Origin: an archaeon
GTDB taxonomy: Archaea > Nanobdellota > Nanobdellia > Pacearchaeales > GW2011-AR1
Length of the DNA stretch: 62,518 nt
Assembly: GCA_009992215.1 (NCBI GenBank)
Contig: JAACWB010000006.1
Span: 1-62,518 of the forward strand
Reading direction: 5' to 3'
This document shows positions 17,228-61,182 of this stretch, piece by piece (the first letter of the stretch is position 1; each line of letters begins with the position of its first letter). A program made the translations under genes and the position numbers. Below the pieces are notes generated by a model. That model had not been told where the DNA came from. It searched no databases and worked only from the letters and a program-made list of their open reading frames with translations.

Positions 17228-17317
17228 AAAAATTTCTTTGTTATTTTTCACGCAAAAATCGCGGAATTCACTTCCCGCTCATAAAATTTACGAAGAAATT
17301 TTCTTATTCAATTAAAA
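17228..17317 (+). repeat. C-tract hairpin repeat, copy H (diverged core)
   Basis: aaaaatttctttgttat ... atttacgaagaaattttct ... attaaaac. Confidence 0.6.
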
Positions 17318-17363
17318 CAATTAAAATGAAATAATTTTTATACTAAACTGATTAGTTTTTCTT

Positions 17364-19265
17364 ATGGAAAAAGAAAAATTTTACGTTACAACTGCAATTG
17401 ATTATGTTAATGCAGCACCGCATATAGGACATGCTTATCAAAAAATTATAGCGGATGTTTTGGCACGTTGGAATAAACTTTTAGGAAAGGATGTTTTGTT
17501 TGTTACAGGAACTGATGAACATGGAAAAAAAGTTCAGGAGTCAGCGGAAAAAGCAGGAATGGAACCTAAAGCATTTGTTGATTCGGTTGTTCCAAAATTC
17601 AAGGAAGCATGGGCAGCTTTGAATATTAATTATGACAGATTTATTCGTACAACTGATGAAGACCATAAGAAAGTTGTTCGTGAATTTATTTTGAAATGTA
17701 ACGAAAATGGTGATATTTACAAGGGAAGTTATTCTGGACTTTATTGTACTGGCTGTGAGCAGTTTTATACAGAGAAGGAAGTTGAAAACAATTTATGCCC
17801 TTTACACAATAGGCCTTTAGAAGAAATTAATGAGGAGAGTTATTTTTTCAAGCTTAGTAATTATACAGATTTTTTATTAAAATTATATGAAGAACATCCA
17901 GAATTTATTCAACCAAAAATTAGAAGAAATGAAATTGTTAACCGTGTTAGTGAAGGACTTCGTGATTTATCTATTACTCGGACTAGTTTTGATTGGGGAA
18001 TTCCTTTCCCACTTGACAAAAGCCATGTAACTTATGTTTGGTTTGATGCTTTGATAAATTATTATACTGCGACTCGTGAAAAAGGTCGAGAGGAATTTTG
18101 GGGTAAGCCAACAGTTCATTTGCTTGGTAAGGATAATACTTGGTTTCACACTGTTTATTGGCCAGCAATGCTTAAATCAGCAGGAATTGAGCTTCCACAT
18201 GTGACATTCAATCATGGTTTTTTGACTTTTAACGGACAAAAGATTTCAAAGTCACTTGGAAATGCAATTAGTCCACAAGTTTTAGTTGAAAAATATGGGG
18301 CTGATTCAATTAGATATTTTGTTTGTCGACATTTTCCTTTTTCTAGTGGAGGCGATGGAGATTTTGATGAAAAGGCTTTGGTTGATAGGCACAACGGAGA
18401 ACTTTTGAATAAGTTAGGTAATTTAGTTAGTCGAGTTACTGGATTAATTGAGAAGAATGGAATTAGTAGTGAAATGTATGATGAAACTCATTTAAATGTT
18501 GGGTATGATTTTAAAAAAATAAACGAGTTAATGGAAAATTTTGAGATTGATAAGGCTTTGAATGAAATTTTTGCTTCAATTGATAGATGTAATGAATGTG
18601 TTCAAGATACTAAACCTTGGGAAACAAAAGACAAGAGAGTTTTGTATGAACTTGCGGATGCAATTAAGAAAATTTCAATTTTACTTTATCCGTTTATTCC
18701 AACAACTTCTGAAAAAATTGCTGAGAAGTTTGGAGGTTGGGAATTTAGTTTGGAAGAATTTGAAAAACCTTTGAGTGCTAATGTTAGAATTGTTAAAGGG
18801 GAAAATTTGTTTAGTAGAATTGAACAAAAAGAGTTAGAAGCTGGAAGTGAGAAGTTAGAAGTTAAGGCAAAAACAGAAAAGATTAGTGAAAAAACTAATA
18901 AAGTAAAAAAACTTGAAGGTGTTATGACAATGGCGGAAGTTAATTTTGATGATTGGATGAAACTTGATTTGCGGGTTGCTGAAATTGAAAATGTTGAATT
19001 AATCGAAGGCGCTGATAAACTTTACAAGATAACTCTTAATGTTGGGGAACTTGGGAAAAGAACAATTTGTGCTGGAATGAGACCTTATTATTCACAGGAT
19101 GATTTGAAAGGTAGAAAGATAATTTATTTTTCTAATTTGAAACCACGAATGATGAAAGGGATTGAGTCGCAAGGAATGATGCTTGCTGCAGTTAGTCCTG
19201 ATGAGAAAACAGTTTCTATTATTTCACCTTCTGAAGAGATTGAAGTTGGCAGTCGAATAGGTTAA
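17364..19265 (+). CDS. metG: methionyl-tRNA synthetase with C-terminal tRNA-binding (Trbp111/EMAP-like) domain
   Basis: HIGH (APHIGHAY), KISKS, and C-terminal LDLRVAEI..ICAGMRPYY. Confidence 0.95.
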   Translation: MEKEKFYVTTAIDYVNAAPHIGHAYQKIIADVLARWNKLLGKDVLFVTGTDEHGKKVQESAEKAGMEPKAFVDSVVPKFKEAWAALNINYDRFIRTTDEDHKKVVREFILKCNENGDIYKGSYSGLYCTGCEQFYTEKEVENNLCPLHNRPLEEINEESYFFKLSNYTDFLLKLYEEHPEFIQPKIRRNEIVNRVSEGLRDLSITRTSFDWGIPFPLDKSHVTYVWFDALINYYTATREKGREEFWGKPTVHLLGKDNTWFHTVYWPAMLKSAGIELPHVTFNHGFLTFNGQKISKSLGNAISPQVLVEKYGADSIRYFVCRHFPFSSGGDGDFDEKALVDRHNGELLNKLGNLVSRVTGLIEKNGISSEMYDETHLNVGYDFKKINELMENFEIDKALNEIFASIDRCNECVQDTKPWETKDKRVLYELADAIKKISILLYPFIPTTSEKIAEKFGGWEFSLEEFEKPLSANVRIVKGENLFSRIEQKELEAGSEKLEVKAKTEKISEKTNKVKKLEGVMTMAEVNFDDWMKLDLRVAEIENVELIEGADKLYKITLNVGELGKRTICAGMRPYYSQDDLKGRKIIYFSNLKPRMMKGIESQGMMLAAVSPDEKTVSIISPSEEIEVGSRIG

Positions 19266-19335
19266 TTTTGATAAAAAATAATTTAAGAAGGGGATTTTGG
19301 AAATTATTTTAAAGTTTGAATTTTTGTTTTTAGTT

Positions 19336-19659
19336 ATGAAAAAATTGAAAATAATTCAAAGAACAAATTGGGAAAACAAATTTTATTTGAAAATTTTTGC
19401 AAACTTAGATTCTATGAAAACAATAAAACTGATTTCAAAAGAATTTGGAGATGATTACTTTTCTGATAATCAAGGAATTCCAAAGAAACTTTCAGATTAT
19501 GAAAAATGGAAAGATTTGTGGATTCCAATTATTGGAAAGAAAGTTTCTTGTGATATTATTTGTGGAGACAGGGCAATTCATTTAATTTTTTACAAGTTTC
19601 CAAGTTTTGATTTTGTAAATAAAGTTTTAGATAAATATTTTGAATGGGAAAAGGAATAA
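19336..19659 (+). CDS. hypothetical protein
   Basis: ORF with start trimmed to MKKLKIIQ. Confidence 0.45.
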   Translation: MKKLKIIQRTNWENKFYLKIFANLDSMKTIKLISKEFGDDYFSDNQGIPKKLSDYEKWKDLWIPIIGKKVSCDIICGDRAIHLIFYKFPSFDFVNKVLDKYFEWEKE

Positions 19660-19713
19660 TTTGATTTAATTTTGGATATAAATTTTTATAAAATATTTTT
19701 TATTTAGTTAGGA

Positions 19714-59830: not shown

Positions 59831-60070
59831 TTATTCAAGAATTCCTTCAATAATTCCAAGTCTTCTCTCGCCTTTTTTATTTTTGAAGAATTCAATTTGT
59901 CTCATTCTTCTTAGAACTGCATCGTAACTTCCTTTTTCTACCAATACTTTCTTTTTGTCATGAGTTAAAAGTCTAAAGTCATAGTGTTCAGGATTTTTTT
60001 CTAAATGCTTTTTTCCAGGATAATCCTTCCATGAAGATTTTTCCTTTCTTTCTTTGTATTGTAAAACCAT
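59831..60070 (-). CDS. hypothetical protein
   Basis: ORF of 79 aa abutting the Hsp20-like gene. Confidence 0.45.
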   Translation of the reverse strand: MVLQYKERKEKSSWKDYPGKKHLEKNPEHYDFRLLTHDKKKVLVEKGSYDAVLRRMRQIEFFKNKKGERRLGIIEGILE

Positions 60071-60324
60071 TATTTCTTTGGTATTTCTATTTTTAGAATC
60101 CCCTTCTCAAAATTAATTTTTGCTTCTTTTTCTTTTACCTTTGGTAAACTTGAGTAATATGAAAAATTTCTTTTTGTTTCTTCTTCACTTTCAAAATTTT
60201 CTCTTGTTATTTTTTCTTTAACTTCTTTTTTTCCAATAATAAAGATAGAATCTTCTTTGATATTTATTTTAAGGTCTTCACGTTTGAATTCTGGTAAATT
60301 AAATTTTAGAATTATATTTTTCAT
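60070..60324 (-). CDS. minimal Hsp20/alpha-crystallin-like protein
   Basis: FNLPEFKREDLKINIKEDSIFI and INFEKGILKIEIPKK. Confidence 0.5.
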   Translation of the reverse strand: MKNIILKFNLPEFKREDLKINIKEDSIFIIGKKEVKEKITRENFESEEETKRNFSYYSSLPKVKEKEAKINFEKGILKIEIPKK

Positions 60325-60376
60325 TCATATTCTAAGGATTAAATTAAAATAAGATTTATTGTCCTTTTAGGATAAA

Positions 60377-61039
60377 TTAATTTTCGTTACAGAATCCTCT
60401 TTCAGCGGGGTTTCTGAATTTTTCAAAAAAGATTAATTTTCCCCAACCAACAAATGGCGCGAGGTTTATTTGTGCTTTTCCAACTAATTGATCTTCTGTT
60501 ATTCTTTTTTCAAATTGAATTTGTCCGTTGTTGTTGTCTCCTAGAGTTGAAAAGATATATTCATCTCCTTCTTTTGTTATGTTAATTATTCTGTGAATAA
60601 CTGGGTTTCTATAATTTGCTTCAAAAATAATTATGTCTCCAACTTTTAATTTTTCAGGTTTTGCTCCAACGATAAATAAAATATCTCCCTTGTTAAAACC
60701 TTTATGAAATGGAAAATCTTCCCAATCTTGTTTTGTTAATTTATATTCAAAATATTTCATGTCGTGCCTTTCCCACCAATTGTCAAAATTTGAAAAGATG
60801 TTTCCTTCGTGATACATTGAACATGATTCAACAATTACTAAAGGTAAATCTGTTCCTGTTGCGAGGCTCATTAACGGAAAAAATATACCTTTTATTACGA
60901 TGAATAAGAAAATTAGAGAAATAATCCATCCTTTGAATGAATCATCTTTCCATACAATAAACCAAAATTTATTTAGAAATTTTTTTATTTTTTTTAAAGA
61001 ATCATTCTCTTCTTTTTTTGTCACCACTTTATTTTTCAT
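60377..61039 (-). CDS. signal peptidase I (archaeal S26B/Sec11 type)
   Basis: TM anchor, VESCSMYH, GDIIIF, PVIHRI and LGDNNNGQ. Start trimmed to MKNKVV because the track N-terminus covers a repeat. Confidence 0.8.
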   Translation of the reverse strand: MKNKVVTKKEENDSLKKIKKFLNKFWFIVWKDDSFKGWIISLIFLFIVIKGIFFPLMSLATGTDLPLVIVESCSMYHEGNIFSNFDNWWERHDMKYFEYKLTKQDWEDFPFHKGFNKGDILFIVGAKPEKLKVGDIIIFEANYRNPVIHRIINITKEGDEYIFSTLGDNNNGQIQFEKRITEDQLVGKAQINLAPFVGWGKLIFFEKFRNPAERGFCNEN

Positions 61040-61099
61040 CCTTGTAAAAAGTATTTTGGGTTTAAAAGATTGATGATTGGAAAGGGGAAGGAAGAGTGG

Positions 61100-61182
61100 G
61101 GAAAATAAATTTTTGCAATTAATATTCAAAACAGCCCACCCAACCCGCCCAATAACAAAAATTTATTTTCTAAATTAATTGA
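61100..61182 (+). repeat. C-tract hairpin repeat, copy G (subfamily 2)
   Basis: Near-identical to copy F. I count 3 mismatches over the 70-nt hairpin. Confidence 0.85.

Follow-up and report, generated by a model that had tools for sequence, protein, structure and literature searches.

A family of strand-polarised C-tract hairpins, probably small non-coding insertion elements, in the genome of a small archaeon

Repeat copies in the window and structure of the unit

The window analysed here, a stretch of 62,518 nt, belongs to the 889-kb genome of a small archaeon that carries eRF1, TFS, RadB and Nre. Approximately 30 ORFs of the window were checked and, as the initial annotation had stated, none is a transposase. 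A scan of the whole window against Rfam 15 at the gathering threshold returned two tRNAs only, and the region 38900-41500, with three repeat copies inside, gave nothing even at E<=1. At least 11 C-tract hairpin repeats had been proposed for the window; all 11 loci hold a repeat, but the arms are clear in eight, weak in two and absent in one. The copies are as follows.

Copy A: 17228..17319, plus strand; degenerate hairpin element, its C tracts weak, located in the divergent spacer 5' of metG (covariance model E=1.6e-4, arm pair, fold)
Copy B: 22943..23032, plus strand; type-2 core CACCCGCCC-N11-GCCCGCCC (covariance model E=9e-7)
Copy C: 23578..23667, plus strand; 76-nt hairpin with a 14-nt tail inside the ATP-dependent DNA ligase gene (Pfam, orthologue comparison)
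Copy D: 30118..30215, plus strand; type-1 core plus an extra C tract; divergent UDG/eRF1 spacer (covariance model E=6e-14)
Copy E: 35382..35470, plus strand; armless C-tract variant with a GAGTTAAG tail, its start being the TAG stop of scpB (missed by the covariance model)
Copy F: 39313..39404, plus strand; type-1 element (covariance model E=1e-15)
Copy G: 41055..41144, plus strand; type-2 core (covariance model E=1.4e-6)
Copy H: 41181..41263, plus strand; type-3 short core CCCGCCCAACCCGCCC, the complement of which is a canonical G3N1-2 x4 quadruplex motif
Copy I: 52189..52273, plus strand; type-1 core (covariance model E=9e-11)
Copy J: 58859..58950, plus strand; type-1 core whose outer stem has decayed, located upstream of the TFS gene (covariance model E=5e-10)
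Copy K: 61100..61184, plus strand; type-3 core CCCACCCAACCCGCCC, with 3 differences from copy H over 70 positions

The pair described at the outset as lying 20 kb apart with three differences in 70 nt corresponds to copies H and K (41181 vs 61100), which are 93% identical over 88 nt. Three loci depart from the AT-rich-armed design that had been drawn for the family. In the copy at 35382-35470 the C-tract core and the GAGTTAAG tail are present and the arms are missing, and similar armless variants occur elsewhere in the genome (C19:46391, C26:3224 and C4:17108). The copy at 52203 has a type-1 core, but its arms are short and GC (GCGACC/GGTCGC, 52189-52250) rather than AT-rich; its inner helix, CACG/CGTG, contains a compensatory change. 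The copy at 58858 retains the C-tract core, but its arms are reduced to a weak 8-bp AT stem.

[quoted passage not shown] An AT-rich stem of 13 to 17 bp, usually starting GAAAWTTT, encloses a loop of 35 to 50 nt that has three or four CCC tracts in its 3' half and CCCTAAT at its end, adjoining the 3' arm. A tail of 14 to 16 nt with an ATTAAG-like end follows the stem. The left flank that had been counted as part of the architecture (TAGCTTGTAG with a GGAAG stretch) is found in only three or four copies and lies outside the core unit; no conserved 5' flank was found among the copies, the flanks being merely T-rich.

Stem sequence differs between copies while complementarity is kept, with 10 of 17 pairs changed on both sides. 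In the stem alignment 92% of cells are paired, values that none of 500 shuffles reached, and slid controls gave 36 to 48% pairing. Folding predictions for the single strand were modestly better than for shuffled sequences (z -1.3 to -5.4), the modest scores being due to the AT-richness of the arms. Covariation is the stronger support for the stem.

The core is conserved across species. Exactly four C3 tracts are present in 22 of 32 copies and three in the others, and this three-or-four rule is common to four genera despite differing arms and outer contexts. On the complementary strand, H, K and several relatives' copies read GGGNGGGNNGGGNGGG, a canonical G-quadruplex motif (G3+ N1-7 x4); for the G-strands of H and K, a stem whose loop contains a three-layer quadruplex is predicted (-39 and -42 kcal/mol; -13 and -17 kcal/mol if the quadruplex is left out). 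Type-1 copies would need one loop of 16 to 17 nt to form a quadruplex. Wobble pairs in the outer stem favour G.U on the C-rich strand over A.C by 24 to 10, and those of the inner helix run in the opposite direction (2 to 16), so that the asymmetry fails to single out one folding strand.

Size and reality of the family

Of the 11 window copies, 10 were recovered by a covariance model trained on 16 copies from the genome, eight of them with E values from 1e-15 to 1.6e-4. The matches were weaker for those at 41185 and 61103 (E 0.06-0.07), both of which have a shorter core. The arm GAAAATTTCTTCGTTAT has 13 matches in the window at up to three mismatches, compared with 2.6 expected and with none of 100 shuffles reaching 13; the matches form six plus/minus pairs, at 17228, 22943, 23578, 30117, 39313 and 41055. 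No 7-mer of the genome is more over-represented than CCCGCCC (33 observed, 2.4 expected).

The initial annotation had allowed that the copies might be confined to this contig through assembly chimerism, or belong to a known annotated RNA family. Genome-wide searches, including that with the covariance model, located approximately 34 copies over 13 contigs, and there was no Rfam match. Some observations do recall an assembly or binning artefact such as a chimeric contig or collapsed repeats: several other assemblies have contigs that end exactly at element H (window 41185/41188), and several genome copies lie close to contig ends (C4:1345, C14:743, C38:234). Against this, the loci of D, F, G and H recur at 99.9-100% identity in independent JGI, ENA and Logan assemblies, copy D being identical in five other assemblies. 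Intact reading frames surround the embedded copies, and the same family is present in other species and genera. With independent assemblies from at least five other samples containing identical loci, an artefact is ruled out, and we give it virtually no weight.

The best pair of copies in the comparison is 89% identical and the median 65%. The copies are old, and no presence/absence polymorphism was seen among strains; current activity is thus not supported. None of the elements lies within 190 nt of any of the 22 tRNA genes.

Insertions in protein genes and target duplications

Four to five copies are in-frame within protein genes (ATP DNA ligase, mnmA, a decarboxylase and two others), and the orthologues are without them. 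In the ligase gene (23077-24096, minus strand), copy C is a 90-nt, 30-codon in-frame insertion with the antisense reading NVNKKKISSELGRVGANSRKMGANNNEEIF, and exactly these 30 residues are missing from the orthologues in genomes G007, G030 and G031. In mnmA approximately 30 amino acids are added following GHYAR, an addition shared with G016; the orf217 site is occupied in the host genome (G000) and G016 and empty in G021, and the decarboxylase has insertions at two different sites. All antisense in-gene copies share one stop-free frame (..LGRVGRVSA..). These orthologue comparisons show that the units entered sequence that already existed, protein-coding genes among it, where they keep the reading frame.

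Orthologous copies of G000 and G016 are 74-77% conserved, somewhat above fourfold-degenerate sites (62%), and keep their stems paired. Compensatory change even at orthologous sites suggests selection on structure, and conservation at this level would fit a host-level function as well as selfish maintenance.

The check for target-site duplications that had been proposed gave direct duplications at six loci, with none detectable at most loci. They are long and variable (16 to 40 nt), unlike the fixed-length short duplication of a MITE, and have scores of 14-26 where the shuffle maxima are 11.5-15.5. One delimited block is at the 3' end of radB:

Left duplication: 40998..41020, plus strand; 22-nt target duplication, GTATTTTTAGAAGGAAAGGAATT
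Right duplication: 41312..41332, plus strand; GTATTTTTAGAAGGAAGGATT, closing an inserted block of approximately 290 nt that contains copies G and H

Within this block the filler TAGCTAGTGAGATGGAAGTTAGAAGTTTTGG (41024-41054) before copy G provides the present radB stop codon. Copy B, antisense to both of the minus-strand genes that flank it, is likewise directly preceded by a filler, the GTAG-rich TAGCTTGTAGTTTGTAGCTGGAAGCTTGTAGCTG (22910-22942). The ligase insertion has no target duplication, its net gain of 90 nt equalling the unit. This insert consists of the hairpin and a 14-nt non-palindromic tail, and terminal inverted repeats (TIRs) are therefore not found at unit ends in the host genome. 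Blocks delimited by duplications extend beyond the stem by 2-80 nt on its left and by 5-170 nt on its right, and they have no conserved termini. The right end runs 14 to 35 nt beyond the stem, and the outer ends are not inverted repeats.

Distribution in relatives and comparison with known systems

Within the genus, 6 of 23 species have the element with one to eight copies each, against approximately 34 here. An order-wide search matched 7 of 401 genomes, all of one family, in which three further genera besides the host genus carry it; viral and metagenome searches gave no matches beyond the same organism. The elements have been gained and lost between species. In the sister genus g68 the same hairpin lies inside a TIR-bearing MITE with TIRs GGCT(T/A/C)CATCCCAAATTA, dozens of TIR matches and target duplications of 9-10 bp. 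TIRs of this type are absent from the host genome. In G257 paired TIRs occur only 132-405 nt apart, and no autonomous insertion sequence with matching ends was found in the fragmented assemblies of the host and its relatives.

The suggestion that these repeats are MITE-like parasites agrees with their behaviour as insertions: they occur within genes, some have target duplications, their distribution is patchy, and g68 has a TIR-borne form. In this genome, however, they fall outside the definition of a MITE because their ends are not inverted repeats and there is no fixed short target duplication; no autonomous partner or transposase was found. Canonical MITEs (Correia/CREE of Neisseria, ERIC, and those of Sulfolobus and halophiles) are similarly short, multi-copy, non-coding, mostly intergenic and capable of altering gene ends and promoters. 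Unlike them, the elements reside in a genome that has no TIRs of the g68 type and no fixed short duplications and in which no related autonomous IS was found, and their arm sequence varies while pairing is kept, which would be unexpected if a transposase read the arm sequence.

Hairpin-recognised systems, namely REP/BIME with RAYT and the IS200/IS605-derived PATEs of haloarchaea and cyanobacteria, resemble the family in that a hairpin rather than TIRs is recognised, the ends are asymmetric, and copies often follow genes; their strand-specific, replication-linked insertion fits the polarity described below. REPs are GC-rich palindromes of 20-40 nt that bear a conserved tag, GTAG or CGTC. The element here is a 76-nt palindrome with a 35-50 nt loop and has no conserved tag, GTAG being present only in the left filler of three or four copies. 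IS200/IS605 elements are without target duplication, insert 3' of a fixed tetra- or pentanucleotide and have TnpA or TnpB; here six loci have long duplications and the copies share no conserved 5' flank. No Y1/TnpA, TnpB, reverse transcriptase (RVT_1) or Cas1 was found in the assembly, which is approximately 80% complete; RAYT (Y1_Tnp, PF01797) is likewise absent from it, and Y1_Tnp matches in G001, G004, G012 and G013 do not follow element presence.

Rickettsia palindromic elements (RPEs) are also palindromic non-coding repeats of approximately 100 nt that occupy spacers and, in-frame, conserved protein genes. They add a peptide segment without breaking the protein, have no dedicated transposase known and are patchy among relatives. 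There is no sequence relationship, the RPE host is an alphaproteobacterium rather than an archaeon, and the C-tract core, the strict chromosome-strand polarity and the occasional 16-40 nt duplications are features of the family here. A 2024 MITE census mentions only a high MITE density in a 'Woesearchaea' genome (PMC11602168). We found no published description of the C-tract hairpin family, which appears to be new.

Strand polarity

All copies on any multi-copy contig have one polarity (11/11, 7/7, 4/4, 3/3 and so on). In all six contigs that could be tested, comprising 29 copies, the C-rich strand lies on the strand with G>C and T>A after correction of GC and AT skew for gene orientation. Polarity is independent of the direction of neighbouring genes: four copies are antisense to tandem genes, two lie between convergent genes, and four of five in-gene copies are antisense. 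If, as we presume by analogy, the G>C strand is the leading strand, the C-rich strand would lie on the lagging-strand template. Judged by the skew match, the orientation would be strand-specific relative to replication, a feature of the IS200/IS605 type, and insertion is probably replication-strand-specific.

Besides parasites, the initial annotation had named regulatory sites and small structured RNAs as possible identities. The polarity bears on two readings in which the conserved hairpin serves the host. In one, the units are primarily structured-RNA genes or cis-elements, multiplied by duplication, whose hairpin and core are kept since the RNA works, as a hairpin sRNA with a C-rich loop, a REP-like 3'-UTR stabiliser or terminator, or a 5'-leader element. 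Compensatory change that has kept stems paired, also between species at two orthologous in-gene sites, a core and tail conserved above fourfold-degenerate sites, and stems still 90% paired in old copies would all agree with it. At least four copies have a promoter-like motif whose end lies 5-10 nt ahead of the 5' arm (39281-39305, C43:3424, C20:342, G009 L002). For copy F this motif, CTCAAAAATAATTCAAAATTGGGAT, is immediately 5' (39281-39305) and has a diverged second copy 3' of the element, at about 39418-39440. Several copies also begin 0-35 nt past the stop codon of a co-oriented gene. Nonetheless, the polarity tracks the chromosome strand and not adjacent genes, position relative to genes is inconsistent, copies within coding genes are mostly antisense to the mRNA, and Rfam gives no match even at E<=1. 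A distribution of 34 copies in one species and none in most congeners is also unlike that of a housekeeping RNA, and we regard a primary identity as RNA genes or cis-elements as improbable.

In the other reading, the conserved part would be a DNA-level polar signal, a G-quadruplex or i-motif in a cruciform-prone stem that a host protein reads in replication orientation (cf. KOPS, Chi and Ter-type sites), with the mobile element a mere vehicle. The agreement of polarity with strand asymmetry in 29 of 29 copies points this way, as do the C3-tract rule across four genera and the predicted G-strand folds of H and K. The copies are very uneven in number and spacing, however, with 11 in the 62-kb contig and none on C37 (98 kb) or C42 (86 kb), no binding protein is known, and the quadruplex is a prediction that in type-1 copies needs the long loop. 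Since most congeners have no element, such a signal could not be an essential chromosome function. A polar signal as the primary identity of the family is very improbable.

Interpretation and possible mode of spread

We conclude that the family most probably consists of small non-coding, non-autonomous insertion elements of a MITE/RPE/REP-like kind. As a tentative model, spread may be coupled to replication. The C-rich strand, on the presumed lagging-strand template, would fold while single-stranded, and a factor acting in trans would recognise it through its shape and C-tract core. The model would account for the conservation of structure rather than of arm sequence, for ends that are not mutual inverted repeats and for the uniform polarity. 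In a minority of events, purine-rich filler was carried along and 16-40 nt of target duplicated; together these look like template switching or staggered-gap repair and not classical cut-and-paste.

A bolder proposal, which we consider unlikely, is that the C-tract hairpin is the recognition module of an undescribed replication-coupled insertion process of small-genome archaea, either transposase-free or using an unknown enzyme. Situated on the lagging-strand template, the hairpin with its quadruplex or i-motif would recruit the replisome or make it stall, template switching would copy the structure into gaps, and what remained would be target duplications of long, variable length together with slippage filler rich in purines, such as (GCTGGAA)4. 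If true, this process would account for essential genes receiving insertions without being destroyed.

Although ultra-small archaeal genomes are regarded as streamlined, dozens of small insertions are tolerated in this one, some of them in DNA ligase, MnmA and other core genes. A structure-conserved stem, a quadruplex- or i-motif-capable core, absolute strand polarity and long variable duplications are rarely found together. If polarity truly reflects replication, the elements would offer both a free marker of replichore orientation for fragmented metagenome assemblies and a clue to a new way of inserting DNA in archaea. For the host, we infer that insertion has added peptide loops, created new stop codons, duplicated promoters or ribosome-binding sites, and placed hairpins and G-quadruplex-capable DNA or RNA in spacers. 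When this lineage is annotated, the elements account for contig breaks, unexpected insertions in proteins, stop codons that have moved and promoters found in duplicate.

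The repeat family and its extent

Hairpin-repeat sequences had been described at 11 places in the window by the initial annotation. All 11 were present where they had been located, and the observation as a whole was confirmed. The units are about 90 nt long with a C-tract core, and three of them depart from the common form.

Copies in the window (contig C16 of the source genome, G000), by start position:
17228, plus strand, copy A
22943, plus strand, copy B
23578, plus strand, copy C
30118, plus strand, copy D
35382, plus strand, copy E, armless, with C tracts and tail retained
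39313, plus strand, copy F
41055, plus strand, copy G
41181, plus strand, copy H
52189, plus strand, copy I, with short GC arms
58859, plus strand, copy J, with decayed stem
61100, plus strand, copy K

With up to three mismatches allowed, the arm GAAAATTTCTTCGTTAT occurred 13 times in the window against 2.6 expected, a count reached in none of 100 shuffles, and its matches form six convergent pairs. The copies at 41181 and 61100 have a common arm, GAAAATAAATTTTTGC, that is unlike GAAAATTTCTTCGTTAT. Genome-wide, CCCGCCC was the top over-represented 7-mer of G000 (33 observed versus 2.4 expected). Using C-box clusters and a covariance model built from 16 copies, we counted approximately 34 elements on 13 contigs; the window holds 11 of these in 7% of the assembly, and the largest contigs, C37 (98 kb) and C42 (86 kb), contain no C-tract element. 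Assembly chimerism, which had been raised as a reason to doubt the copies, is excluded because the loci of copies D, F, G and H recur at 99.9-100% identity on contigs from at least five other, independent samples. The second doubt, that the repeats might belong to a known annotated RNA family, drew nothing from Rfam: the elements had no match when the entire window was searched at the gathering threshold, or in a search at E<=1 of a 2.6-kb window stretch with three copies.

The G000 assembly comprises 889 kb in 56 contigs with 29% G+C and is an estimated 80% complete. The window genes are archaeal (eRF1, TFS, a minimal ATP-dependent DNA ligase, RadB, ScpB, Nre and NAC), and gene content and genome size are consistent with a small-genome archaeon. 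Copy I lies at the left edge of a group of small orphan ORFs (window 52370-55438); a Pfam scan of four ORFs within or next to this group (50793-51299, 51334-52179, 52867-53478 and 54152-54757) gave no matches.

Conserved structure of the unit

The anatomy of the unit was determined from an alignment of 16 "type-1" copies. The outer stem has 14 + 3 bp flanking a conserved T.T mismatch, the inner helix has 4 bp (CRCG...CGYG), a single-stranded 3' part of the loop, YCCCNCCCNCCC-TAAT, adjoins the 3' arm, and the tail reads CT-N5-8-ATTAAG/C. Pairing in the outer stem is 92%, with changes on both sides in 10 of 17 pairs; none of 500 shuffles gave values as high, and slid controls were 36-48% paired. 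Two compensatory variants of the inner helix occur, CGTG/CACG and CACG/CGTG, with A.C at one position in half of the copies. Thermodynamic z-scores of the AT-rich hairpins were modest (-1.3 to -5.4), and it is covariation in the alignment, not folding energy, that supports the predicted stem. On the C-rich strand, wobble counts were 24 G.U versus 10 A.C in the outer stem and 2 versus 16 in the inner helix; these ratios are opposite and therefore do not single out the folding strand.

Other element types:
Type 2, core CACCCGCCC-N11-GCCCGCCC, stem and tail as in type 1
Type 3, core CCCGCCCAACCCGCCC, stem and tail as in type 1
Type 4, armless, with a long stretch rich in C

Arms and cores are mixed modularly among copies. 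Exactly four C3 tracts were found in 22 of 32 copies from G000 and its relatives, and three in the remainder. On the complementary strand, type 2 and type 3 both match the canonical G-quadruplex motif, and in copies H and K the ViennaRNA prediction for the G-strand is a stem whose loop contains a three-layer quadruplex. Two type-2 elements of G000, C14:743-883 and C38:234-374, are 89% identical to each other and have in common a nested insertion of about 51 nt within the core, ..AACTCGAACAGTGTGAATTCGG.TTCACATTAATTGAATTCAACTGATTCT...

Two functional readings were rejected. The bulges or G.A pairs needed for a bulge-helix-bulge intron or a K-turn are missing on inspection of the alignment. An anti-Shine-Dalgarno mimic would call for CCTCC, which is present in some cores only, CCCGCCC being commoner.

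Insertions inside genes

Copy C with a 14-nt tail (23578-23667) forms a stop-free 30-codon insertion in the ligase gene, between adenylation-domain motifs, and exactly these 30 residues are missing from the orthologues in three relatives (G007, 72% identical, G030 and G031). Further in-frame elements of G000 were found in an mnmA-like gene, in a 217-aa ORF (orf217) and at two positions in an Orn/DAP-decarboxylase-like gene. All four antisense in-gene copies use one reading frame, ..LGRVGRVSA... Species G016 also has the insertions in mnmA and orf217, and the orf217 orthologue of relative G021 is uninterrupted. By sequence comparison, the G000 elements are insertions.

Two other candidate empty sites failed. 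Comparison of the decarboxylase alleles on C26 and C9 seemed to reveal a clean unoccupied site and a 7-nt repeat; the allele taken as empty retains CCTAATT, the 3' arm and the tail, and so reads as a 57-nt internal deletion or partial copy. The end of C26 (10800-11313) duplicates the 5' part of the gene at C9:20126-21205 with mosaic identity, 85-90% first and 100% in the last 95 nt, the 57-nt difference lying inside an element; the pattern suggests a paralogue, heterogeneity between strains or a join made in assembly. The methyltransferase site, filled in G001 and G016, was unusable because the G000 protein is merely 8 aa shorter, with no recognisable element. No presence/absence polymorphism was seen between strains, the other samples being the same clone.

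Target duplications

The initial annotation had proposed looking for target-site duplications across copies, and the outcome was divided. Long direct repeats flank six G000 loci (16, 19-26, 22, 24, 26 and 29-40 nt) and score 14-26 versus shuffle maxima of 11.5-15.5, whereas the ligase insertion is a bare unit with no long duplication. The final 22 nt of radB (40998-41020) are repeated at 41312-41332, beyond a block of about 290 nt with copies G and H, and radB is now stopped by a TAG formed by the first bases of this block. At C20:41219 the duplicated segment includes the RBS and start codon of the downstream gene. The duplication-flanked blocks contain variable purine-rich filler, such as (GCTGGAA)4 and TAGCTAGTGAG..GGAAG, and have no conserved outer termini. 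Elsewhere in radB, 49 nt (window 40375-40423) are absent from ENA assembly ERZ17986938 (locus L294), where the product as called has 211 aa rather than the 241 aa of the window.

Strand polarity

Orientation was uniform in each multi-copy contig: 11/11 in the window, 7/7 in C19, 4/4 in C26, 3/3 in C9, and 2/2 each in C4, C14 and C20. Neighbouring genes do not explain this, since four tandem-intergenic copies are antisense, two occupy the spacers of convergent gene pairs, and of the five in-gene copies four run antisense to the mRNA. Plus-strand GC skew was averaged over plus- and minus-strand genes per contig, which separates replication-type asymmetry from coding-strand bias. The corrected skew was measurable in six element-bearing contigs (|R| 0.09-0.17, AT skew opposite in sign), and in each of the six (29 copies in total) the element has its C-rich strand on the strand with G>C and T>A. 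By analogy with genomes whose leading strand is marked by G>C and T>A, the C-rich hairpin strand would lie on the lagging-strand template. The gene-corrected skew of C37 and C42 is far weaker than that of element-rich contigs (R = 0.05 and 0.02); this, with their absence of elements, could be due to another chromosomal region, a skew switch within the contig or a binning issue.

Distribution and the sister-genus MITE

The covariance model found the family in only 6 of 23 species of the genus, where G021 has 8 copies, G016 has 3 and four further species have a single copy each, compared with approximately 34 in G000. A search of the whole order matched 7 of 401 genomes, which all belong to the same family (this genus and three other genera). 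The specific core pattern ACGCGTCCCNCCCNCCCTAAT had no matches in viral contigs, and in metagenome contigs it matched only the organism of G000 itself, plus one chance match. A loose core pattern, CGCGYCCN{3,9}CCCTAATT, in genome and viral contigs matched only unrelated, mostly GC-rich sequences, none of which passed the covariance model. Its single weak match on locus L054 is an unrelated palindrome, and this chance match belongs to a repeat, GACGACTTGGCAAGTTTTACGRAAAATTAGGGATTT.GGCGCGC...GCGCGCC.AAATCCCTAATTTTTTCGT, at L054:7225-7290 and L062:1320-1400, two contigs of one MAG, "uncultured bacterium SRP141376_co3_392".

In the sister genus g68, the same C-tract hairpin module lies between TIRs of the form GGCT(T/A/C)CATCCCAAATTA, with 9-10 bp TSDs (TGATTTCTCC, GGAAATGCA and TTAATCACA). 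Genome G257 has 76 TIR matches, many at contig ends, with paired TIRs 132-405 nt apart.

Examples of the g68 MITE:
G257, C8:7317-7457
G257, C21:5523-5710
G257, C102:9346-9751
G257 and G161, loci L282, L283, L286, L287 and L289

These elements are a classical MITE family with variable cargo (132-405 nt), of which the C-tract hairpin is one type. No autonomous copy was seen in G257 or G161. The suggestion that the window repeats are MITE-like parasites is supported in substance, as they are insertions and the g68 MITE carries the same hairpin, but not by definition, as the outer ends of the G000 unit are not inverted repeats and G000 has no TIR of the g68 type.

Age and maintenance

The best pairs of copies are 89% identical and the median is 65%; judged by this divergence, the copies are not recent. 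Their stems are still about 90% paired despite it. At two in-gene sites orthologous between G000 and G016, the elements are 74-77% identical versus 62% for the fourfold-degenerate positions in flanking mnmA sequence; there is almost no change in core and tail, and the arm differences are compensatory substitutions. After insertion, the structure could have been kept by selection acting on the spot, by gene conversion between copies or by renewed insertion into the same position.

Proposed mechanism and classification

We conclude that the family is a non-autonomous insertion element that would be recognised by its shape and core. A coupling of insertion to replication is probable, and the substrate would be the C-rich strand, folded and single-stranded. 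Such a mode would account for arms conserved in structure and not in sequence, asymmetric ends, absolute polarity and the lack of a short fixed duplication. The long-duplication events, whose filler is microsatellite-like, resemble template switching or gap repair and may be a second route of spread.

The proposed mode is like that of IS200/IS605 and REP-RAYT. However, the GTAG/CGTC tag or fixed 5' target of those systems is absent from the G000 elements, and their chemistry gives no long duplications, which six loci here have. Y1_Tnp, TnpB (zinc ribbon), RVT_1 (reverse transcriptase) and Cas1 were not found in the approximately 80% complete G000 assembly, and in congeners their occurrence is uncorrelated with element presence. 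Reverse transcriptase and Cas1 are possible sources of long duplications. Membership of IS200/IS605 or REP-RAYT is unsupported in G000 because tag or fixed target, Y1_Tnp and TnpB are lacking and the six long duplications are present. The family is an undescribed variant of palindromic non-autonomous elements (RPE, REP, MITE) in a small-genome archaeon. It is unusual, and worth following up, for its strand polarity, for being conserved at the level of structure and for the long target duplications at some loci.

Sequences flanking the elements

None of 22 tRNA genes had a C-tract element within 190 nt. Tandem heptamers occur directly 5' of elements, as (GCTGGAA)4 at G000 C20:41174-41201, and analogous (GGCAGAA)n or (GGCAAA)n lies at G021 loci L271, L012 and L267. 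The G021 copies have a common conserved 3' extension, TTGAATTATCNCCTG..GCGGGCATGRATG. About 30 good copies of a promoter-like motif, CTCAAAAATAATTCAAAATTGG(G), occur in G000, mostly 17-95 nt upstream of a co-oriented start codon.

Copies of the promoter-like motif:
Window, 39281-39305
Window, 25918-25942
Elsewhere in G000, for example C43:3424 and 3550; C9:6161; C19:11661, 32468 and 34694; C20:13070

The motif adjoins the 5' arm of four or more elements, and three insertions are flanked by duplicates of it. A conserved 25-nt block of one of a few kinds, for example GCAAYRAAAATCTTTAATTTTATCTC or CTGTAAATTGAAATTYCAAACTAAT, often lies in front of the motif, which is similar to the interior of the terminal repeat of the g68 MITE (on the complement, TCATCCCAAATT).
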